Shown here: positions 13,705 to 33,240 of the stretch, piece by piece
Layout of the letters: the number at the start of each line of letters is the position of its first letter
Numbering within the stretch: position 1 is the first letter of the stretch
DNA from: a virus
Taxonomy: Duplodnaviria; Caudoviricetes
Reading direction: 5' to 3' (one strand)
DNA length: 64,000 bases
IMG/VR virus record: IMGVR_UViG_3300031867_000003
Span: 138,176 to 202,175 of that record
Position numbers and translations under genes: made by a program
The notes under the pieces: generated by a model
Databases searched by the model: none
What the model was told of the DNA's origin: nothing
Seen by the model: the letters and a program-made list of their open reading frames with translations, nothing else

Positions 13705-14923
13705 TTATTCGTCTTCCTCGTCATCTTCAACAACATAGATGCTATAAAGTCTCTTATCAGCGTCGCAGTAAGAAACCTGAAGCTGTCCATTAAAGTCGAT
13801 AGTTTGGTTGTCGGAACTCAGTGACACTTCGCTTTCCGGCGATACCTGGAAGGACGGAATGTCGATATATGCTGCACGAAGTGTATCTGCGGAGCAAGGA
13901 TCGACACAAAGAACCTTGAGAATAAGACGGATAGTTCCCGGGAACTTATCAGCTTTATTAATCATCTCAACAGCACCAGCTGTTGCGGCTGTGCCGTCAA
14001 GTTCACGATCATAACGAATCATGTACTGAGTATAATCGTTGCTAAGCGGAAGAGTAAGAACTCCCGTCCCATCATCATAAGTAAACGTAGAAGCTGTAGC
14101 ACTACCACCAGTCTGGAATGCAGTACCAAGAGTACCGTTGTTCTCCATGCCATATACCTTCGGAGTGCCGGTTACATATTTAAGAGTAACTGTCGGACCA
14201 TTAGATGCCTTAGCAATTGTGATACCAGGTGCGGTAATTTTATGATTTGCAGTAGCCTCAATTTTACCGGAACCCGCTTCAGAACCAAGAATATTAAGAT
14301 TAATGAAAGCGTTAGTTGCGGTAAACTCACCAGTTTTTGCTCTCCAGAAACGTTTCACGAGGTTGCCGTCTTTATCGGTAACATCATTAGATTCTGCGGT
14401 AATATTAAGAGTAGCTTCCTAAAGCTAGGTGAGTGTATAGAGAACGTTGCCGTCAAAGTCTTCAGCAGTTGCGACCTGGATACGGTCAATAATCAAATCC
14501 TAGTTTTCTTAAAAAGAAAAATGTTCACATGGGGTCGCTAGTCCCATGTAGTTCTCAAATGAACTTCTTATTGTTTCCAATAAGTACAGACTATATCTTA
14601 TTCTACAGCATTACCTGTTTAGACCTAACCATTTCGAGAGTCAATAGCTTACTCCCTACTTTCTCTTATGAGAAATAGTCGTTGAACCTTACCTTACGGT
14701 CTTGGCTGCTGATTGCCCATTGTTAACGGTACTTAGGATTTAACCATATACCATATAGTAATTTTTTTCTACTTTCGTAGCTCTCACGTATATATCTATT
14801 AGATATTGCGTTGTAGCTTCACTATCTTTAGGGGTTCCCAGCAATTAGATTAGTTATTATAATTATGACATATACATATTTCTATATATGCTGACTAGAT
14901 TATTAATCAAGCTTGAATGCCAT
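13705..14923 (-). CDS. major tail (tube) protein, spliced: exon1 14923-14906, exon2 14499-13705; code 15
   Basis: Spliced product MAFKLD|DLIIDRIQVATAEDFDGNVLYTLTQLQEATLNITAES...KRFWRAK (270 aa), in frame with ORF 13705..14358. Tail identity is inferred from position and remembered family resemblance. Confidence 0.8.
14500..14905 (-). ncRNA. group I intron (406 nt, no ORF) in the major tail gene
   Basis: P AATTGCTGGGAA, Q AATCAGCAGC, R GTTCAACGACTA, S AAGATATAGTCT; exon ends in U with a U.G pair in P1 (CUUGAU/GUCAG); terminal G; P10 AAUC/GAUU; removal restores the frame. Confidence 0.92.
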
Positions 14924-16370: not shown

Positions 16371-19107
16371 TTACAACGCAATGATTTCAATTGGCAACGA
16401 AGCAATTATATCTTCGCCGTCAACTTTATATGTTACAGTAAGTATTTTGCCGATATACGAATCGTCTCCCAAGAACTTAACCTTAACATGATTATCTATT
16501 ACAGATAACGTCAGCAATTCTTGTGGAACAGAATTCCCGTCTATAGAAAATTCCCAAGTACCGGGAAGTGTATCTATCGACGTACCGTCTTCGTCGGCAA
16601 ATACCACGGTGAATGTTTTGGCAGAGCCGCCTATACGAATCTGCTGTTTACCTGAGCATGTAATTGTAGTAGTGGTAGTGGGAGTTGGGATAATATCATC
16701 TACCGGAACAGCCGGAGTAGGTTCTACTTCACTAGCTTTCCAATCCGCCCACCAAGCAACTACATTGCCATCAACATCATAATCAGCTTTAAGTGTATGT
16801 TGATTAGCAAGATCTTGCGCACAAGTAAAAATCGCAATTCCTTTAGAATTTGAACGATTTATTTTACTAATCTAAAATACGCGAGGTTCTGTTAATACGT
16901 TGGCATCTATCACCAAGTAAGTGTTATAATATAAATGTTCCGTATCACGATTTAACGGAAGACAGAACTAGGTCTAGTCTTCTGGTTGCTAAAATTTATA
17001 CATATACGTTACTTTATCAAGTCGTTAATTTGATAAAGAATTATTTAATTCATTTAAAAAAGCCAAATACTTAGAATGTTTTCTTTCTAAATATCTATTC
17101 GCATCATAGTATAACCAATCCATGATTTTTATTACATTCTTTTTGCTTAATGTTTGAAGAACGGATGTAATATCATTTTCCTCTGGATGAGCGAGTTGAA
17201 GACTTAAATTTACACCTAATTTATTTTGAAATATTTTATTAACACTATTACAAAAATCAAATGTAGATATTATCTTAAATCCACACCTTAAAAGCCCATT
17301 ATCTTGAAACGTATAAAAACTTCCGTCCCCGTCAAAATAACCCCTTATAAAATGTGAATGTAAAAAATCTGGAATGTCTGGGAACGTCAACATCAAACTT
17401 TTGTTTTGAACCATTCCTTGCTCTACTAAAGAATTTGATAAATGTTTACTTGATAGTTCTAAGCATATCTATGGTTTAACATTATCAGCTTTTATTAATC
17501 TATCTCCAATATACGAATCTCTTTTAATAATTTGTCGCAGTGGTCTATTAGATCCTATATCTTCACTAAATTTTTCTATTATTTCACGATCATCAATTTG
17601 TAAGTCTAAATGTATCGCATTCCTAGGAACATTATTACAACCATCCGCATACAATAATCCCAAGTAATATGCCTTATCTTGGGTATCTATTATATCAAAA
17701 TACTCTTCATTTAATGAATATTTTCTACGACCAGGATTCTTTATTCCTAGATTAATAAATAATTCAGATATAAATCTCTAGCTAACATTATTTTCTTCAG
17801 ATAATTTTTTAATAGATTTCCCAGACTTATATTCATCGATATGGTTATCAATATTCTCCAAAAACAATTTTCTATTGTATTTTGCATCTTTATTATACAT
17901 ATAATTAATCCTCCTTCAAAAGATATAATGTATGCTATAATAAAAACAGTAATTTTTATGTTGAAGGCATAAAAAAACGGTTTGCAACCCGCTGTCCTGT
18001 TTTTATTCAAAATGATTAAATAATTTTTCTTATACTTTCATATAAGATCGGACTATATCTTTAACCGCAATTGCGGTTACTTCCCACTGGACTTACTTGA
18101 GCCACTTAGTCTCTGAACTTTACCCTCATCAAGTCTTAGCTGCTGATTATCCAATATAATATATTTTTTGACTATCACGCTTAGATGTATCTCATTATTA
18201 CGTTGTAGTTATACTATCTCTAAGGAAGTTCCAGCAATTCAAGAAGTTTTCATCGTATTATTACTAATACGTGCGACTATTTCTAATCGAGCCATAATCC
18301 ACTCATTATGTTATCATAAGGCTTTTTATCCTTATCTCTTACTGTCGCCAGTAAGATCAGCATATGTTTTCTCCATATCATTAACTTGACTTAGGAGTCG
18401 GACACTCGTGGGAATATTATATTTATTCAATTCCTATGCGTTACAATACTTCGCAGCCTTTCGCTATCTGCGAAGTTATCTCGGCGTTGTCTACGAGAGA
18501 GTTCCACCGATTTTGCCCGATTTTCACTCATAAGTTTCCTTATAAGGCAACAATTTTTATTGTAAGAATTTTGGCTCCTGCTGACCCCAGGGAACTCATA
18601 ATATTTCCCATCTTTAATCCAGCGGAACACTTCGTCACAACGAAGTACTTCCCAAGTCGGAAACATATTTTCATCCCGGTCAGCTGTAGCAACCACTAAC
18701 CATCTACGGTATATGTCATCTTCTCCCTTTAGCCAAACATAAAGACCAACTGGATATCTAGCTCTATACCGCTTACCAAACACTTCTTCGTAATAATCAA
18801 CACCGCACTCATGACCTGGTCTAAACTAAATATGCATAGTCTATTCATCTTTTTGAAATGTCTTAGAACTATGTGCAATAAATTTCACATCTATAGGGGT
18901 TGGATTTGTATCCTCTTCCGGGTTAAATCCTTCAAGACGAAGTCTATTCTGCGGCGCGGTATGGTAGTAATCGAAGAAATATCCAACCTAATACTAAACA
19001 TCCTATGCAAACGTAGCATCCATGATTACATCACTTTGCTACTTCCTCGCCCTCCCCGGTACACTAATATTATTGTGCATTGCCTAAAAATCTCTGTAGG
19101 TAATCAT
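16371..19107 (-). CDS. head-tail/neck protein, spliced from 3 exons (19107-18559, 18303-18286, 17000-16371), about 398 aa, code 15
   Basis: Spliced junctions read ...RSQNSYN|SGLWLD|YKFQQPEDQTQFCLPLNRD...; all exons are multiples of 3; many in-frame TAG. Confidence 0.8.
17001..18285 (-). ncRNA. group I intron carrying a LAGLIDADG homing endonuclease
   Basis: P AATTGCTGGAA, Q AATCAGCAGC, R GTTCAGAGACTAA, S AAGATATAGTCC; P1 CGAU/GUCG; terminal G at 17001 (an in-frame alternative G at 17007 is possible). Confidence 0.92.
17025..17900 (-). CDS. intron-encoded double-motif LAGLIDADG endonuclease (code 15, 2 TAG)
   Basis: KAYYLGLLYADG and HFIRGYFDGDG motifs in one frame once TAG=Gln; GAAGGAGG RBS. 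Confidence 0.9.
18304..18558 (-). ncRNA. group I intron (255 nt, no ORF)
   Basis: P AAATCGGTGGAA, Q AACGCCGAG, P7 GCATA/TATGC; P1 CAAU/GUUG; terminal G; removal restores the frame. Confidence 0.85.
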
Positions 19108-22429: not shown

Positions 22430-23998
22430 TTACTAACAAACTAATTTTTCTTCTTCTATTTTTTGCCAAGTTAAACGAGTACCATCTGGAAGATGCCCAG
22501 ATGTTTTTCTACCATTTCTAAAATAATTAGTTATAGAAGCATGATACTTTTTATCGGCAGCGGAATATGAATCAAATATTTCTCCAGTCTCAACGCATAA
22601 AACCTTGTTTGGGATATTCCCCAACATCTTATATCCATGTTGGCGATTCAATTCAATTATCTCTTCTTTTGATTCTTTGATTAATCCGATTGCAGAAGCC
22701 TTATATAGCAATTCCCTCGCAGAATAATCGCTTATTCCTAAATCCTTACAAATCTGATACAAAGACTTCTCTTCATATGAATTCCATAAATCAGATACTT
22801 TTAATAAAATACTCTTTGAGGCAATTTTATCAATTTCGTCAAAATCAATACCAGACAAATCAAATATATTTGAAAGAATTGAATTTTTAATAGAATTTAT
22901 AATATAATCCCTTTTGTTTTTACTCCCATAATTATAATCAAGCCTAATAATTGTAAACCCATGTTGTATAGCCAAATCGTCTTTAATCATATCTTTAGCT
23001 ATGACATCCTTGGCAGTTTGACCAGACATATTATTGTCGCAATAATGAAAACCACCATCTACCTCAATAATATATTTAATATTATTATGGCAAAACATGA
23101 AATCATATCTCGATAAATCCACCCATTTAGGAATATATTGATACTCATATTTAATATTTAAACTATCAAGCATAGCCATTATAAAACGTTCCCCATAACT
23201 CGTTTTGTTACCACATAACTCACAACTAAACCCTCTCAATGAAACATTATTAACTAATCTTTTAAATTTATGTCCACAATCTGGACATAGCCACCATATT
23301 TTAACCCCAGAATTAGGCGTATACTTAAAAGCGTCCTGTGGTGAAAGCAAAAACTCTTCAAGGTCAGGTCTTAAAGTATGTATGTCATTAACATTGGTCA
23401 TAGGCCTAATTCTGACTTCAGGATTACATAAAGGACATAAACAATTGCCTTTATATAATAATGTCTGAATTGCTCGAGAGAAAACAGTCCCGCATATATT
23501 ATGTCTAATTCTCATTGTTTGATGAGCATTTTTATATTCGTCCAATGGAATATATTCATCCCCATACAAATCATAAAAACGTTTTAGAAATTCCTCGTTT
23601 GTTAATTTTTCCGAATTATAACAAATTGGGCATCCTTTCCCAGACATCACCTTACTAGGCGTAGTTTCTTTTTCATGCCCACACTCCAAATATTTAACTA
23701 ATATTGGAGTTTCATGATTTATATATTTACCAAGTATTTCATATCTGCCCGGATATCTATTCTCAATCTTTTCAACAAATTCATCGTGGGTCACCCTATA
23801 TAAATTCTGACAAATAGGACATCCAAACCCGCCTAAGAGATTCGACGGACGAACCTCATTTTCATGGCCACATTTATTATATTTAATTTTTACCTTAGTT
23901 TTTGCATTTATATAATCACCAATAATGGTATACGTGTCTGGATATTTTTCATTTAATTCATTTTGGAATTCTTCGGTTGTTTTCGCTTTTCTTGGCAT
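22430..23998 (-). CDS. free-standing zinc-ribbon repeat endonuclease (Vsr/DUF559-like nuclease domain)
   Basis: Repeated CGH...GCPIC modules and YDF...IIEVDGGFH; ends TAG-TAA-TAG. Confidence 0.8.
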
Positions 23999-24261: not shown

Positions 24262-25935
24262 TCATTTTTTGCTTCTCAGTAATCCATCGAGAAAACTTGT
24301 ATTATAATCAATTCTACCAAATGCAAAGAAATCTTTCTTCGGTTCTTCTTTCTTCTCGGAAGTATCCGCCGCAAAATTCAATTTTCCAGCCTTTGCATAC
24401 TGAAGCAGAATTGCGTCAGCCTTATCTTTGACCTCATCAACTGTAAGATTAAAATAATTCTCACGTTTCTTAAGATCTTCAAATTCCTGAGTACCAGCAA
24501 TACTTGTATAATCTACGGAATTAAGAACTTCAACCTTCTCGGGTTCAGATTCGTATTTAGCAAGTTTATCAGAAATATCGGAATAATTACTCTTCATAGA
24601 CTCAAGCTGAGCTTGTTCGTCTTTGCTTAAATACGTACAGAATACCTCTGTGCGATCTCCCTTTAAGGAATAAACATCCTTCTTTACTTGATATGACTGA
24701 CGGTAATGTTTACCATTCCAATAATCATGCATATACACGATTTTCTCATCATCCAGTGCGTCCACGTCATACCAGGCATTATCGCTTTCTCCGTAAGTGG
24801 AGTTCACAAGCTCATAAAGTGCGTTAAGTTTCTCCATTAACGTAGAAGAGAATGTCTTTACTTCACCGTTGAAAGAAACGGTTTTGTCGATACTATATTT
24901 TTTCTGCTGACCGTTATTAAGTACACCGTCATCAGTAACTACATCTTCCGGTTCTTCTTCCTCGGAATCGTCAGTGGTATCTTCTCCATCAAATTCATCA
25001 ACCACTTCGGGAGTTTCTTCGGTAACTTCTTCTTCCACTTTTCCAGAAGCTTCTGTGTCAGTAACCTGAGTTTCCTCATCAATGGTTTCATTTAATTCGA
25101 TGTTTTCTTCCTCAATAGTTTCATCTACTTTGTTTTCATCAAATTCCAAACCATGTTCCTCCTTTCTTTGGTCGTTATTTATATGATTATCAAGCTTATT
25201 CATAACAGCTTGCGTAATCTCGTCAATTAACTCTGCTTTATTAAACATAACAGAATTATTCTCGGCACTAAAATCAGCTATATCTAATCTGGCACCTTCC
25301 ATACCTTCTCCGATTTCTTCTCCGGAAACGGGATCTACTCCGAGCAATGTAGCTCCTAACACAACGACATCCTCGAGAATAAGTTCCTTCTCTTTTGAAT
25401 CGTAAGACATTTTATTTACGCCCAACTCAGCGGAAAGTTTTGTTCCACCCTTACGTTCAATAATATCGGCAGCAGCAGTGTAGTTTCTCGGAATTGCACA
25501 TTTTGCAAACAGATATTTTCTGTCTTCATGCTCAGAATCCTATTCAATATATGGTTTATCTGCGGTAAAACATCCTACTTGTTTTTCATAGTATGTAATA
25601 GAACCATCATCATTAAACTCAAAATCATGAGATGTAAAATCCAATTCTCCGTTTACATCTGTAAAATTTGCAAGAATCGGTTTATATGCAACAGTAGAAG
25701 CGCTATTCTTCAAACCTTCCTCCGTTAAATTTGACCGGTTTTTGTTGCGTCCACAATGCATGAGTTTAACTGTACCAAGCAATAAAGAATCATCTTCTGA
25801 TTCTTCTTTATCAAATACCGCCGGTACTTGTACGCTTAGCTGATACCCAGTCTATTTCGAATCAAAAGAATTGAAATTTTGCTATTCACAAAATTCAATT
25901 AAATTCTCTAATGTCAGAATTTTCTTCTTCAACAT
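24262..25935 (-). CDS. prohead protease/scaffold fusion (YonD-like), code 15
   Basis: ORFs 25540..25782 and 24262..25425 join via TAG; HCGRNKNRS and KLSAEL motifs, acidic scaffold-like C-terminal half. Confidence 0.75.
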
Positions 25936-25982
25936 ACTTCCTCCCTTCTTTTTAGAATTTCTCTCCAAAGAATAGGAGAGTA

Positions 25983-26165
25983 TCAAAATGTTATTTTATT
26001 TGTAAAATTTACCTTCATACTGTCATCAGCAGAAAACATTAAATTGGTATTATTAATAAATACCCACTGAGTGCCTTCCTTTGGAAGTTCTTCATAGCCG
26101 AGTTCTCGCAACTTCTCGGCGGTTTCTTCATCAGATGTATGAATAAAAAATTGTTTATCCTTCAT
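25983..26165 (-). CDS. small hypothetical protein
   Basis: MKDKQFFIHTSDEETAEKL...; AGGTG RBS. Confidence 0.65.
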   Translation of the reverse strand: MKDKQFFIHTSDEETAEKLRELGYEELPKEGTQWVFINNTNLMFSADDSMKVNFTNKITF

Positions 26166-26394: not shown

Positions 26395-26510
26395 TATCCT
26401 TTTTATCTCCTTATTTATTCTTTTTTTAATTATCATAATCACAGAATAGGAGAGGGGTTAGGACACCTCTCCGTATAAAGTTTGTAACTCCTTATATTAT
26501 TCTGTGTGAG

Positions 26511-26827
26511 CGGCGGAGTTGGGACTTGCACCCAAACCGACGGGCTCAGAACCCTGTAGTTTTCTTACCACATTATGTTTCCATAACCGAATATTATTCG
26601 TTGTAGTCTGGGACATCTCATTACCATATTTAATAATATATTAAACTTAGGTAGAAGCTCTATGTCCTCCACACATTTATAAGATATAATAATCTTAATT
26701 TAGCTCGGGATTGCCATATACAAAACGTACTTAGGTGTTCCCCGAATTAGGCTTCTTTTCAATTGTATTTTTCAACACAATGCTCCAAAACATCAGAGAC
26801 TACCTGTGCTGCTTACACCACTCCGCT
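26511..26827 (-). tRNA. amber suppressor tRNA (anticodon CUA) split by a group I intron; exon1 26827-26795, exon2 26563-26511
   Basis: Spliced 86-mer: AGCGGAG TG GTGT AAGCA GCAC AG GTAGT CTCT|AAA ACTAC AGGGTTCTGAGCCCGTCGGT TTGGG TGCAAGT CCCAA CTCCGCC G. It has a perfect 5-bp anticodon stem and the loop CU-CUA-AA. Confidence 0.85.
26564..26794 (-). ncRNA. group I intron (231 nt) inside the anticodon, between positions 35 and 36
   Basis: P AATTCGGGGAA, Q AATCCCGAGC, P7 GGACAT/ATGTCC; P1 CUCU/GGAG with U.G at the splice site; P10 GUUUU/AAAAC; terminal G. Confidence 0.88.
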
Positions 26828-26919
26828 AAAACAATAAATTAAATTATTAACGCAATGCCACGTTAAATCCATCAAATAAAATAATAGAGCGGGAGATTAG
26901 TCCCGCTCTAAATTACTAA

Positions 26920-27353: not shown

Positions 27354-28934
27354 TTACGCAATTGTACTGCCCGTATTTCTACTTCTTTCAGCACTACCGC
27401 TTAAATCATCATCGTCCGACCTAGGTCTTCCGACCGTGTTACTGGAAGTATTATAACTTGATTTCAAAGGTTTCATCATATCTTTGATACCAATAGCATT
27501 CTCAAACCTAATCTTGTTAATTGCCTTATACGGTGTTCCTTCAATAACAGATAAATAGTCCAATGCCGGACCACCTAATGTTGCGGAATCTTTATATCTT
27601 TGGATATAATCATCCTCATTAAACCAGGTTATTCTCAATATCTCAAAGATATACCCCTTAGATATATTTTCCGCAATATAAAAATTCAGCCAAGATTCCA
27701 ACCTATTTACCCAGACCCACACATTTGATTGATCCGCAAGCTGAGCAAATTTAATAGCTAGATTAGAAGTAGAATTTCCACCGGACACAACTGTTTGTGT
27801 TAATCCGCTGTTGGAAAACAGATTATTTATAGATTTCGCTAATGCATCTGTATCCGACGCATGTGACGTATCATTAAACGTAATTTTATCAATGTCGAAC
27901 GGAGCAGTAATAACACCGACCAAATCCGGCACTGACTGTTCCTCAAGCTGTCGAAAATAATTAACCATCTCCATTGAGATAGCAAAATCATCAACATCCC
28001 CGCTGTTACCATTATCCACTAACGGTATCTTATTCACAATCAAAGCATAATTCTCAAGTTCTGTTTTAGATTGAAGAATCTGCTGCAAATCAAGTAAATC
28101 TAATAAATCCGTAAACAGCGGAAGAAAATATGGCAATGGGAACGAGAACTCATCTTCCGGACCAATCAATAAAACACAACATTTTTCAGGCGGTAATCTA
28201 AACCATTGATAATCACGTCCGCCATCCTTATATGAACGGTATCCGTTAATAAATACCTCATCCCAAGTTGCATAACTTCCTTGCCCATCAACTCCGAGAA
28301 CAAACTCACTGTTGTTAGCAGCGTCAAAAAATGCAGCATTAAAATATACGACCCATTCTCCATACTCATTTTTTCCGACTATTCTGCAATATTGAACGTC
28401 TAGCGGCATTAAAAAAGTTCTTCCTTGTTTATTCTCATAAACGTACCCAGCATAAAATCCGTCACGGATTGCAAGATATAGTGCGGTATACATATCTTTC
28501 TTCAGACTAAACTTGTCAAAAGTCTCGAGTACTTTTTGATAACCCTTGAGCGCCTTATCCACATCTATCTCTTCGGCTAAATCATTTGCTTGAGTAATTG
28601 TATAATAGAACAACGGCATCGCCGCCATATACATAATCATCTTTTGATACAACATTGAATTCCTAACTAAAAATCTCGAAATTTCTCGAAGAGTATCTTG
28701 ATTGTTAGCCGGAGACTAAACATATGTTTTTACGAGATCTTTAGTATATTGCGTGAAAGTTCTGTTTACAGACCTAGTGGCATTACGCTGAAGAATTTCT
28801 TCCATCTTGGCAAATGTCATCGTTTGCGCACGATCACGCTTATAAGAAAAATCCTCCACATCCGCGGGGATTGTAGTTATTTTAGTTTCATTATTTTTGG
28901 GGCCGCCGTCAGCGGTTTTCTTTCTTGTTGCCAT
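27354..28934 (-). CDS. portal protein (YonE-like), code 15
   Basis: ORFs 28716..28934 and 27354..28655 join via one TAG; LREISRFL motif, C-terminal GRP; follows the terminase. Confidence 0.8.
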
Positions 28935-28949
28935 ACGGCACCTCCTTCA

Positions 28950-30707
28950 TTATTTAAATCTGGTTACTTTTCTAGGTTGGCGGAATGTAAATTGAGAGAA
29001 TAGAGAGTTTATATCTTGGTTTTTCGGTCTCAACTTTAACTCCAACTAACACGCACACCAATAATTATAAGCAATAGAAGAGTAACGGTCTTTACGCATA
29101 CCTGACTATTCTTTAACTTTAATGTTACCATTCTTAACCTCATGATCGAGTTTAATTAATTCATACTCTGCCATAGTTGTTTGCAAATACGGCATCTTTA
29201 TATATGCCTAATCAGTCGGAGAGAGTTTGGAATAGGGTTTATATAATTTTACCAATTCCTCTTCACATTCTTGTTCTGAAATAAGAAAGCTAATTCTACC
29301 ATTCTATATTCCATTTCTAAGCAATACACATATTTCGTTATTGAAAGTTGCACCAGCTTTTACTGACCAAACAACTTTATTTGCATCTTTAACTTTACAT
29401 CTAATAGCCATGTCTTCATCATTAATGCACGTTAACGCTTTATATGTTTTTCCAGTCGAAGAATCATATTGATCCTTACAAATAAAATCGAAAATTCCAA
29501 TTCCTAGTCCTCCTGTATCAACCACTAAGTCAGTGCATTTGTATTCATAGAAATAACGCATAACAATAATCCCAAGTTCGTCAGTTGTTAACCCTTCGAA
29601 AGTTTCTCCGTAAACTACATTTGAATGATAACTTATGTCATCCTACTGAATCGCACTATTGATATATAATGCAGCTGCGTCATTCTTCTTTTTCTTTGTT
29701 GATCCCATAAGAGCTACGTCAACAGAAAGAATTCGTTTTTCTGTTGCAGAAACATCGGGGACTTTGATTTTATCATTATAGAATTTTAGTGGTAATAAGG
29801 CGTTTTTGATTTTTCTCTATTTATTTATCTCTTCCCACTTAAAGAGATTATCACCATCATCTCCGACCCACATACATTCCATTTCCATAGTAAAAGCAAG
29901 TTCATTAAAGTCAGCTTCTGATTTTTCATCCATTACTTGATCTTTGGACAAAAGACCTTCTTTGATGCTTAATTGATATGGTAGTCCACAGCAAAAATAT
30001 CTCTTAGTGTCATCGAAAAAATTAACCACATATGCTTGTAACTTTTTCCATGCCCATGAACTTTTAAAATAAGCACTACTCATATATATTTCTTTATTTC
30101 TTTCTTGCAGATGAGAATACTCTGGCTTATTTAAATATCCCGGCTATCTAGGACTCGTTAAAAATTTACGAATAACCAAATTCAAAATAGTCTCATCAAC
30201 CATACGAAACTCATCAACTACAATGATATTCGCTCTAGCACCACGAGCATTATCTGTACTAGTTCTTGTTGTAATCCAAGAACCATTTTTAAACATAATA
30301 ATTGCATCATTCTATCCTATGTTACATTTTTCTATTTCAGTACATAAGATAGGAGACATTTTCATTAGTTCATCCTGTATTTTTAACAATACTCCATTTG
30401 CCTATTTAAGAGTACCGGAACAAACAACAATCTTACTACCAGGATATAATATACATCTTACAACACAAAAGAGCGCAGTAAGCCAACTTTTTGACATACC
30501 CCTTGCGGCAATAAACATAAAGTAATTATAATGCATCATCGCCCATATTAATATCTTCTAAAAAAGCTTAAGGTGTATGCCTAATACTTCTTCAACAAAC
30601 CGCTCTGGATTTGCACGATAATAAGCTGCTCTAAAAGCAACTGTCTACATTATTTTCTGTTCTTTGTCCTGAGCAATTTCACGAACAGATTTCTTTTTTT
30701 CAGCCAT
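28950..30707 (-). CDS. terminase large subunit (YonF-like), code 15
   Basis: AARGMSKS (Walker A), [13 protein letters not shown] (Walker B), [22 protein letters not shown]; TAGs fall at expected Gln sites (LKLFQKILI, TLKQA, PRQPGY). Confidence 0.9.
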
Positions 30708-31762
30708 CACAATTCCTCTGTGGTTCCGAATATCTGATCAAATAGAGTTTCGGAATCTGTATCTTCATCGTATTGTGGTTTATCAACTGTGTATTTTTTG
30801 ATAAACTTTTCATACGTATGAGAAAATGCATTTTTTAGTCCCATCATACGAGACATATGACCTTTAAAAAATACATCAAGATAAAGTCCTATTTTATTAA
30901 CTGAACGAAATTCTTCGTCAGGCTCAGGAATAGGTTTTTCATTTTCCCATTTTTGTATCAACTGCCCAAATGTTTTAGCCTCTGTAAGTGCATTGGAATT
31001 ATTTTGATTAGGTTTTAATGACATACTCCCCATTAAATCTTGAAGCGTTTTATCTAATTCCTTTGTATCTTTACCAGCCTTTTGGGCCTTATCTATATCT
31101 AGTTCTTTAAAGCATATACGTTTAAATAATATTTCTTGTGCCTTATTTTCACAAGCATAACGCTTTATCCAATCTTGATATTCTGTCTCTAAAAAAATTA
31201 AATCAGAATTTGTATACCCATCACCAAATCGTTTTTTGGCTTGTTTCAGAGTTCTAGAATTTTCGTTTATCTCTTCCTCATCTTTATCGAGATAATCAGG
31301 GGGAAATTCTGAGTCTCTCCAGCTTTTATTTTTATACTGAAACAGACTTTTTACCATTACGATATACTGACTCCATGCGGTTCCTCTATGTTTATCTTGT
31401 ATATCCTCAGAGGTAGACGAAACAGCAGATTGATATAAAGAATCAATATAGGGCAAATCCATCATTCTAAGTACATCCATTGTTTTATCCCGATTATCAG
31501 TATATTGATTCGTTTTCTTATCATAATCACAAGCCATTTTAATTAAACATTTTTTGCAAATTGGAAACAGCCCACTTGAGTAACTTTTATCCGAATAAAA
31601 AGCATCGGTATTGTGGAACTCATTACATTTTGGACATAGAAATACATCCCCATTTATTATGCGATTATAATCCTTAGCTAATTTATTATATTCTTGTCTA
31701 ACCTAAGCGACCCCAGTTTTTCTAATTTCCTCCTCTGTAAGTGCTTGTTTTAATCTAATCAT
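30707..31762 (-). CDS. putative terminase small subunit (YonG-like, CxxC zinc finger), code 15
   Basis: CPKC...CKKC; TFGQLIQKWENEKPIPEPD; immediately upstream of TerL. Confidence 0.65.
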
Positions 31763-32892
31763 AAAATACCATCCTTTTTATCATAACTCCACTTATATCC
31801 TTTATAACTATCTATAATACCCTTGCAACAATCACTTATGTTGCTCATATTAAATCCATCAACTACAACATCGGATAATCTATTATATGTTTTAATTAGT
31901 ACCCCATCCAAATCCAGTTGTAATATTTTTCCACGATATCTTTTTCTAATAGTATTACATAACTCATAACATTTTTCAGGAGTAAAATAATCTAAATCTT
32001 CCTCATAACAAAATACAAATCCCTTTACTGTATTTCTTTTCCTCTGACAACATTCCCTAACCATCCTAATATGAAAACCACTCCGTGTAACATCATGCAT
32101 AGAATCATACATTTTTACAATAGCCCCATTTTCATCTAATTGAACAACCCTTTTAGCCTTCATCCTATTATGTACATTATTTATATATTCTAGATATTCA
32201 TCTGTTAATATATAATAATCATCCTCATAAATATAAATATAACCATGAGACACCAAAGTCCCATTAGTCCTTGATCTTATTGGATTATATCCTAATTCTA
32301 ATCTCGCTATTTTACACGTTTCCCATTTTTTAAGAATATTCCCAGATAAATCACACTGTAGTACAGGTGCAACTTTTCTTTCATCAAAATACCACTGCAA
32401 GCTGTCAAAGCCATGATAGTCTTCTAAGAAACAAAATATATATTTGTCTACCCTCTTTATTTTTTTATGCACACATAAATATATTGCGCTAGGATCTATA
32501 TTTAGTTCTCTGGCGGCCTGCGGGACATTGTTCCATTCTTTAATTAGGTTTCCAGACAAGTCAAATTGTAATACTACATGTATACACGAAGTACCTTGCC
32601 CTCCAAGAGTATTATTGTACCCATTACAATCAACAAATCCGTGATATGTCCTTAATCTATCTATCCAATATATTTCTTTTTCGTCTAATTCATTTTCATT
32701 ACATAATTCAATAATGGAAAAATCAAATTTATTTTCACCATGCTTATTCCACGAACTCTACAGATGACTATTCCCATGTTGATTCTTATTTAACAGCCTT
32801 TTATGGTCTTTCCATCTTCTGTTAATATCAACAGCTTGACCAACATACATTTTCCCATTATCCAAATTAGTAATTTTATAAATTCCAGTCAT
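31759..32892 (-). CDS. GIY-YIG homing endonuclease with NUMOD1-like repeats, code 15
   Basis: MTGIYKITN...MYVGQA...RRW...H; HLQSSWNKHG has TAG at the conserved Gln; repeated VLQ.DL.G..IK modules. Confidence 0.9.
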
Positions 32893-32988
32893 AACATTCC
32901 TCCTTTTCATAACAAAAAAGAGAGGGAGTGATTTCCCTCTCTAAGCAGTTATTCCGTCAGAATGTAGCCAGTATCATCACTGGTAAAT

Positions 32989-33057: not shown

Positions 33058-33138
33058 TAAAATAATAAATTTCACCACGGGAATCGAACCCGAAGCAGAA
33101 GAGTAGTAGTTACTCTCCCGCGTACCAACCTAAACAAA

Positions 33139-33240
33139 TCAATGTGTTATTAATTTAACAACATTGCAAAATGCAACCGTCATACTCCAGCCACCAAGAA
33201 CAGCTACAAGGTTGCAAATAATTTTGTCACGTAGGCGCAT
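33139..33240 (-). CDS. 33-aa hydrophobic peptide
   Basis: AAGGAGGTG RBS; MRLRDKIICNLVAVLGGWSMTVAFCNVVKLITH. Confidence 0.55.
   Translation of the reverse strand: MRLRDKIICNLVAVLGGWSMTVAFCNVVKLITH

Follow-up and report, generated by a model that had tools for sequence, protein, structure and literature searches.

A tRNA gene with the anticodon CUA, split within that anticodon by a group I intron, lies in the late region of a phage genome. The window analysed here is a 64,000-nt stretch covering positions 138,176–202,175 of the IMG/VR record IMGVR_UViG_3300031867_000003, whose genome is labelled G000; other L- and G-numbers are labels of the other contigs and genomes that were compared, except that L001 and L007 are other parts of G000. 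The split gene occupies window positions 26827-26511 on the minus strand, and its intron sits between anticodon positions 35 and 36. We consider it likely that this is a working amber (UAG-to-Gln) suppressor gene that was invaded by a mobile or selfish group I intron, which is tolerated in an essential gene. This reading draws on the anatomy of the gene, the junction fixed by intron-less alleles, a family of related introns, covariation of the intron helices, the use of TAG as a glutamine codon, and a search that found no other good suppressor.

When introns are allowed, ARAGORN returns a tRNA(cta) with a 231-nt intron, exactly the gene first noted in an initial annotation made from the letters alone. 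That annotation had described two tRNA halves with 231 nt between them, and its anatomy and coordinates are correct, the strings it quoted being minus-strand reads. It had also held that the CUA anticodon is formed only on removal of the intron between nucleotides 35 and 36. The exons joined in silico (an 87-mer) are called by ARAGORN as a tRNA with a cloverleaf, the anticodon CUA and a 7-nt anticodon loop (C-U-C-U-A-A-A) in which U33 is present and position 37 is a purine. As anticipated there, standard tRNA scans miss the gene: default ARAGORN calls only tRNA-Pro in the window, and Rfam at gathering thresholds finds tRNA-Pro and two other group I introns in it, with nothing at the split-tRNA locus.

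The junction is settled in silico by an intron-less allele, found with an 18-nt T-arm pattern, that lies one nucleotide from the predicted product and is itself a good tRNA. This allele (L017:5675-5760) differs from the predicted ligated exons at 1 of 86 nt, in the variable loop, and reads through CUCUAAA; its 5' part has no differences from the 5' exon, and it scores 36.0 bits against the Rfam tRNA model (RF00005, gathering score 29). The 231 nt thus amount to an exact insertion (or deletion) separating U35 from A36 in a suppressor tRNA that is otherwise conserved. The gene order around it is the same, with the large terminase (TerL, 72% identical), the portal (41% identical) and then the tRNA, and L017 is also TAG-recoded, carrying 12 in-frame TAGs in its TerL. 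Similarly, the intron-less tRNA of L015 matches the ligated exons of the split L028 gene in its anticodon and variable arm and reveals the true join there. Intron-plus and intron-minus alleles of the same tRNA are thus available in two cases, window versus L017 and L028 versus L015.

On direct reading, the intron contains all the group I hallmarks initially listed, namely P1 (CUCU/GGAG with a U.G pair), P10 (GUUUU/AAAAC), P7 (GGACAU/AUGUCC) and a terminal G, and the U.G pair at the 5' splice site is U26795 (U35).G26786. Helices P2, P3, P4, P5, P6, P8, P9.0, P9 and P9.1 can be placed as well (Table 1). GAAA tetraloops in L2 and L9.1 and CCUAAG/UAUGG receptors in P8 and P5 make up two loops and two receptors, a layout that we take to be the Azoarcus-type (IC3) peripheral architecture; in the L028 intron the P8 receptor is missing and L2 is GUGA instead of GAAA. 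P7, which would be expected to serve as the guanosine-binding helix, is 100% paired and shows double changes in 3 of its 6 pairs, and P9 has a different sequence in each family member with its pairing always kept.

Covariation was assessed in an alignment of five family members (A5) with RNAalifold, P7 being added as a pseudoknot. RNAalifold recovered P2, P3, P4, P5, P8, P9.0 and P9.1. Over 46 pairs, 92.6% of cells pair, compared with 34–39% when the partners are slid by 1–3 columns; 28 of the pairs change on both sides, and no shuffle out of 500 attains these figures. Pairing in P3, P4, P7 and P8 holds throughout the alignment. A local search of 701 nt with the group I model RF00028, suggested in the initial annotation, did give a group I match (E = 1.4e-5), although its score of 29.7 bits stays under the curated gathering score of 50; the homologous Leu intron in L001 likewise has no gathering-level match to the model. 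Judged by covariation, the insert is a genuine group I intron with a supported core that includes the P3/P7 pseudoknot, and self-splicing is predicted. With the L017 allele one base apart and helices that covary across five family members, the gene anatomy is, by these comparisons, far beyond chance.

As a separate observation, the P9.0 strands ACUAC/GUGGU (26603-26607, 26567-26571) are the same as the anticodon-stem sequence GUAGU/ACUAC (26799-26803, 26556-26560). The P9.0 motif is found family-wide, and its likeness to the anticodon stem may therefore be chance, yet it would permit alternative exon–intron pairings.

A need for such a suppressor is evident from the neighbouring genes. When TAG is read as sense, the late genes fuse into long open reading frames (ORFs); one frame of 1148 aa contains 32 TAGs, and TerL contains 11. 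The 11 TerL sites were aligned with 120 standard-code homologues, in which Q fills 795 of 1320 cells (60%) against a background of 4.1%; Q holds the majority at 8 of the 11 sites, and three are nearly invariant Q. Because of this enrichment, TAG is assigned to Gln, as had been proposed for the surrounding virion genes. No other CUA tRNA was found in G000 by ARAGORN (default or 90% stringency) or Rfam, nor was a phage-encoded release factor or a glutaminyl- or glutamyl-tRNA synthetase (GlnRS/GluRS) found in that genome. The genome G001, likewise TAG-recoded, has a single CUA tRNA, which is split.

The tRNA itself offers a hint about its amino acid. A weak or mismatched 1:72 pair together with G73 is seen in all the CUA tRNAs (window/L017, L028, L014, L009, L015), and the phage's own tRNA-Gln(UUG) likewise has both. 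GlnRS classically recognises weak 1:72 pairing and G73, and the su+3 tRNA-Tyr amber suppressor, a type-II tRNA, accepts Gln when it is mutated in this way. For the predicted charging of the spliced tRNA with Gln, these features are a lead.

One further candidate deserves mention. At window 33068-33140 (-), 9 nt from tRNA-Pro on its upstream side, there is a weak tRNA-like element in which CUA occupies the anticodon position and the T arm is canonical. ARAGORN reports it only at -ps85, and it has A33, C37 and a weak, G.U-rich acceptor stem; even at E <= 10 the Rfam tRNA model gives no match. L014 and L016 conserve the element, alongside a normal suppressor. Given A33, C37, the acceptor stem and the Rfam result, it is an unlikely decoder and was set aside as a second suppressor; it may represent a pseudo-tRNA or else a signal for processing.

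Related introns, which form a family with this one, were found by scanning contigs of viruses, metagenomes and genomes for two conserved motifs of the intron. Exons were joined with ARAGORN, keeping the solution with a 7-nt anticodon loop (L010 was checked by hand). The majority of hosts are tRNA-Leu(UAA), and the others are Ile(UAU), Arg(UCU), Lys(UUU) and CUA tRNAs. A looser family pattern gave 24 loci in metagenome contigs; the exact 26-nt 3'-junction pattern had no match in the metagenome contigs, and blastn of the suppressor locus had none among GenBank phages. L023–L026, which came from a relaxed viral-contig pattern, were rejected as false positives in coding sequence. Four distinct CUA tRNAs are split at 35/36: the window gene (G000), G001/L028 (196-nt intron, directly downstream of the portal gene of a complete 205-kb genome), L009 (= L036, L050; 253-nt intron) and L048 (673-nt intron). 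The search for split CUA tRNAs in other code-15 phages, recommended initially, was therefore productive. The L028 gene is miscalled Leu(aag) by the intron mode of ARAGORN.

Outside the window, G000 carries a second split tRNA gene (L001:11553-11952 (+)), a tRNA-Leu(UAA) interrupted at the classical U34/A35 site by an intron of 314 nt. The 3' half of this intron aligns plainly with the suppressor intron; default ARAGORN misses the gene and intron mode miscalls it Phe(gaa). The guide sequence varies with the exon it faces, being GGAG/CUCU in the window and L028, GGA in L009 and GAG/CUU in the Leu, Ile and Arg introns, and P10 follows the 3' exon in the same way (GUUUU/AAAAC in the window, UAU/AUA in L011). 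Such tracking of the exons is what would be expected of functional introns adapted to their sites.

Evidence for mobility comes from within the family. The family intron of one phage tRNA-Arg(UCU) contains an ORF for a 182-aa HNH endonuclease (L010:5496-6044 (+)), a hint that part of the family is actively mobile. L010, whose 3' exon begins CUAA, was also considered as a suppressor and rejected, as its 5' exon shows tRNA-Arg(UCU). The introns form a mosaic, present in both the Leu and the suppressor tRNA of G000, in the suppressor alone in G001 and in Leu alone in the L013/L016 contig. Paired intron-plus and intron-minus alleles, as looked for in a mobile intron, are found, the window intron itself being without an ORF. 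Separately, L054 (CALUUV010000169.1), a contig of a Gastranaerophilales metagenome-assembled genome, has a 210-nt family member in tRNA-Leu(UAA); either the family has a cellular (Melainabacteria) host here, or the contig is from a phage and was binned wrongly.

Equally recoded relatives have suppressors with no intron. L014 and L016, whose portal is 98% identical to that of the window phage, hold an intron-less, unrelated CUA tRNA at the same site. This tRNA (L014:6099-6171, and the same locus in L016) is highly divergent: its D and T loops are non-canonical, it has A1:U72 and G73, and it is called by ARAGORN only at -ps95 and missed by default ARAGORN and the Rfam tRNA model. The CUA tRNAs of L014, L015, L016 and L017 are all intron-less, and the in-frame stops of all four are TAG only; L015 and L017 are the more distant relatives. 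The suppressors of L014, L016 and L017 share the portal-downstream locus. Three unrelated CUA tRNAs were found at this site among the relatives and, as far as gene comparison can tell, allelic replacement clearly happens there.

According to the reading that we favour, transcription from within the late virion-gene block would yield a primary transcript. The intron would fold, its guide forming P1 with C32–U35 (the splice-site pair being U35.G) and P10 with A36–C40; guanosine would attack after U35, and the exons would then be ligated. Only the ligated product would have the loop CU-CUA-AA and decode UAG. The ribozyme step would be obligatory because an unspliced transcript cannot decode, making splicing a required maturation step, most likely a constitutive one, for the sole credible suppressor. 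The intron presumably persists since it is seated in an essential, conserved site and splices itself out. Because of the Leu/suppressor mosaic and the sense-tRNA hosts, the intron family is not tied to suppressors. For timing, the conserved position of the suppressor in the late block, after a terminator-like hairpin, would be a simpler source than splicing.

The initial annotation had gone further and proposed that splicing acts as a gate, the suppressor staying inert until it is spliced, so that the code switch is timed and the host is spared a toxic suppressor; on this model TAG read-through, and with it the production of virion and lysis proteins, would be delayed. There is some ground for this idea. 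The anticodon exists only after splicing; in two recoded genomes of ~200 kb the only credible CUA tRNA is the split one; intron-split CUA tRNAs recur as four distinct sequences; and, more speculatively, the identity of P9.0 with the anticodon stem could allow splicing-incompetent pairings. Ribozyme-linked suppressor maturation has already been proposed for theta ribozymes (PMC10879173). A second, intron-less suppressor had been named as evidence against gating, and no credible one is present in G000, the weak CUA element at 33068-33140 (-) being the qualification. The proposal nevertheless did not hold up well. A gate appears dispensable, because L014, L016 and L017, sister phages that share the gene order and the TAG recoding, have suppressors free of introns at the corresponding locus. 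Introns of this family are also found in sense tRNAs, which have no use for a gate, among them the tRNA-Leu(UAA) of G000 itself. There is no sign of a regulatory input, group I splicing requiring nothing but guanosine and Mg2+, both always present, and the late-block position already supplies transcriptional timing. Furthermore, tRNA group I introns such as that of Azoarcus self-splice efficiently (PMC13168695). We therefore regard a splicing gate as unlikely.

Two other explanations concern the fate and the use of the intron. It may benefit the phage without acting as a timer, by protecting or stabilising the suppressor locus; it could, for example, block recombination or allele replacement, destroy a homing-endonuclease target or yield a useful intron RNA. 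Allelic replacement at the locus, with its three unrelated CUA tRNAs in relatives, and a genome rich in homing endonucleases and introns fit this idea, but neutral gain and loss of selfish introns predicts the same pattern, and we hold it to be very unlikely. The least probable of the explanations is that the gene is dead or decaying, its intron no longer splicing and TAG being read by the 33068-33140 (-) element, by an undetected divergent tRNA or by a host factor. Divergent CUA tRNAs do evade detection, as that of L014 (-ps95 only, missed by Rfam) illustrates, a CUA tRNA-like element with a canonical T arm does adjoin tRNA-Pro, and the Rfam intron score is below threshold. However, the core helices, the U.G pair, the terminal G, both tetraloop–receptor pairs and the exon-matched P1 and P10 are intact, and exons that lie 1 of 86 nt from the L017 allele imply selection or a very recent insertion. 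The substitute decoder, for its part, has A33, C37, a poor acceptor stem and no Rfam match, and co-occurs with a normal suppressor in L014/L016.

Several points weigh against a constitutively spliced, intron-invaded Gln suppressor. The RF00028 score of 29.7 bits lies under the curated gathering score of 50. The description "sole suppressor" is not absolute because of the CUA element near tRNA-Pro. The tRNA is an odd Gln acceptor, with a long variable arm, A1 opposite C72, a small D loop without GG, G at position 55 and the T loop UGCAAGU, and its charging is deduced only from codon-site alignments. Mobility and the number of invasions are likewise deduced only from presence and absence, because the window intron has no ORF and the intron tree (last 115 nt) contains one well-supported branch and does not show how often CUA tRNAs were invaded. 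Finally, splicing might be rate-limiting or conditional in vivo and so set when and how strongly UAG is read as Gln, which might come about, for example, through slow folding, competition between P9.0 and the anticodon stem, or a phage- or host-dependent factor. We think this quite unlikely; if true, it would amount to a ribozyme-controlled genetic-code switch that was gained in some lineages and replaced by transcriptional control in others.

With regard to the surroundings, the gene had been placed between portal and scaffold. The portal does lie upstream, whereas the scaffold label has no support, as the downstream gene (24262-25986) has no Pfam match and falls in a PHROG family of unknown function. 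The architecture of the three-helix element 3' of the tRNA recurs, with compensatory changes, after the tRNAs of L028, L014 and L016; the element has no Rfam match and is possibly a terminator or a processing site. A theta or hepatitis delta virus (HDV)-like ribozyme was considered at this position and rejected, there being no Rfam match and, by eye, three simple helices rather than a double pseudoknot. TerL is nearest to that of SPbeta/phi3T-type Bacillus phages (44% identity), by which measure the phage is SPbeta-like, and a crAss-like affiliation was rejected on the same ground. The G000 genome has 202,175 bp and is 100% complete according to CheckV.

Table 1. Features of the split tRNA(CUA) locus, in window coordinates
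Feature	Position	Strand	Description
tRNA(CUA) 5' exon	26795..26827	-	Acceptor 5' strand (A1 opposite C72), D arm, anticodon-stem 5' strand GUAGU, then loop bases C32 U33 C34 U35 (CUCU)
Intron	26564..26794	-	231 nt, group I, IC3-like, no ORF; terminal (omega) G at 26564
tRNA(CUA) 3' exon	26511..26563	-	A36 A37 A38, anticodon-stem 3' strand ACUAC, long variable arm, T arm with loop UGCAAGU, acceptor 3' strand, discriminator G73, no encoded CCA
Internal guide sequence	26783..26791	-	GGAG (26786-26783) pairs with exon CUCU (P1); GUUUU (26791-26787) pairs with 3' exon AAAAC (P10); both by direct reading
P2 hairpin	26762..26781	-	GAAA tetraloop (L2); all 10 pairs with double changes across members
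P3 5' strand	26751..26756	-	AGAAGC, partner 26658-26653; 5/5 pairs compensatory, 100% paired
P4-P5 domain	26704..26746	-	11-nt-type GAAA-tetraloop receptor CCUAAG/UAUGG in P5, read from sequence
P6 hairpin	26680..26697	-	Varies among relatives
P7 5' strand	26662..26667	-	GGACAU, partner AUGUCC 26616-26611; pseudoknot with P3
P8 hairpin	26623..26652	-	Second CCUAAG/UAUGG receptor
P9.0	26567..26607	-	ACUAC/GUGGU; encloses P9 (26600-26588) and P9.1 (GAAA loop, 26586-26573)
Three-helix element	26441..26508	-	Directly 3' of tRNA; outer 9-bp helix around two hairpins
Terminator-like hairpin	26885..26910	-	Between portal gene and tRNA
Portal gene	27354..28934	-	Upstream of tRNA; 1 in-frame TAG; phrog_2739, E = 2.8e-84
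Large terminase (TerL) gene	28950..30710	-	11 in-frame TAGs

Some other features of the genome were noted in passing. Five Rfam-level group I introns lie in the late (virion) region of G000, at window 18029-18306 (-) and 14567-14918 (-) and at L007 4064-4328, 7214-7494 and 15170-15455 (-). Free-standing homing-endonuclease-like genes with HNH or GIY-YIG PHROG matches are located in the structural block near the suppressor, at window 22430-23998 (-) and 31759-32910 (-). The early tRNA cluster holds two odd tRNA-like genes (L001:12087-12168 and L001:14050-14141), one with a 17-nt anticodon loop and the other with an anticodon loop of 4 nt and a 25-nt D-loop insertion. A repeat of the opening 100 nt of the G000 contig (C1:1-100) occurs at C1:201498-201597, ~680 nt before its end, which may be terminal redundancy or assembly overlap; the IMG/VR class is linear.

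These findings bear on how recoded phages are recognised and understood. The suppressor is present but split by an intron or divergent, and so escapes tools run at their defaults. Searches for tRNAs that allow for introns should therefore bring hidden suppressors to light, to the benefit of code assignment and gene prediction in recoded phages. A phage can, it seems, rest its entire late proteome on one ribozyme reaction, and a tRNA-type group I intron family circulates among phage tRNA genes. Since alleles with and without the intron exist in nature, the question of regulation is open to direct test. In addition, the compact intron, of 196–253 nt in the three ORF-less suppressor cases, and its two tetraloop–receptor pairs may interest RNA engineers.

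A full-text literature search, whose coverage is incomplete and which is no proof of absence, found no description of a group I intron that splits a suppressor anticodon, in keeping with the initial impression that the combination had not been described. Code-15 phages are known to encode an intron-less tRNA(CUA) that enables TAG-to-Gln reading in late genes (Borges et al., preprint 10.1101/2021.08.26.457843; Yutin et al., 2021, PMC7886860). The same papers report that recoding and the suppressors that can be detected do not match up (10.1101/2021.08.26.457843; PMC7886860), and there are recoded phages with obvious TAG reassignment and no detectable suppressor tRNA (PMC7886860, PMC12386605). 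Unlike those intron-less suppressors, the ones described here are hidden, by an intron in G000 and G001 or by divergence in L014/L016, so that the suggestion that "missing" suppressors may be hidden ones becomes concrete in this lineage. "Enigmatic", unclassified introns in sense tRNAs were described in Lak megaphages (Devoto et al., 2019, PMC6784885), and unclassified tRNA introns in jumbo phages (PMC13037316). These, too, are TAG-recoded gut phages whose tRNA introns are missed by bacterial-mode scans; in the passages considered, the tRNAs that carry them are sense ones (Tyr, Thr), and the introns are neither assigned to group I nor said to split a suppressor anticodon (PMC6784885, PMC13037316).

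The nearest functional parallel is provided by theta (HDV-like) ribozymes, which adjoin the suppressor tRNAs of recoded gut phages and for which a role in the code switch was proposed (Kienbeck et al., 2024, PMC10879173). Both systems couple a ribozyme to the maturation of a phage suppressor tRNA in code-15 phages. Theta ribozymes, however, cut the 3' trailer, outside the tRNA, whereas here a group I intron lies inside the anticodon and no decoding would be possible before ligation; Rfam gave no HDV-like match near the window suppressor tRNA.

With respect to structure, the Azoarcus intron has GAAA tetraloops in L2 and L9 and receptors in P8 and P5. The IC3 introns of Azoarcus tRNA-Ile(CAU) and Agrobacterium tRNA-Arg(CCU) are ~200 nt in size and sit in the anticodon loop (PMC13168695). 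They resemble the window intron in their size, the lack of an ORF, the anticodon-loop site and a short P1 of 3–4 exon pairs; self-splicing has been shown for Azoarcus, while the likeness of the window intron is one of architecture, with an RF00028 score of only 29.7 bits. The tRNA-Leu(UAA) intron of cyanobacteria and plastids (U34/A35) is similarly a small group I intron in the anticodon loop, placed after a U that forms the P1 U.G pair, in a type-II host tRNA with a long variable arm, and G000 has the same arrangement at L001:11553-11952. What sets the window gene apart from that classical intron is that its host tRNA reads a stop codon, its site is 35/36 rather than 34/35, its guide is re-matched to CUCU, and its setting is a phage.

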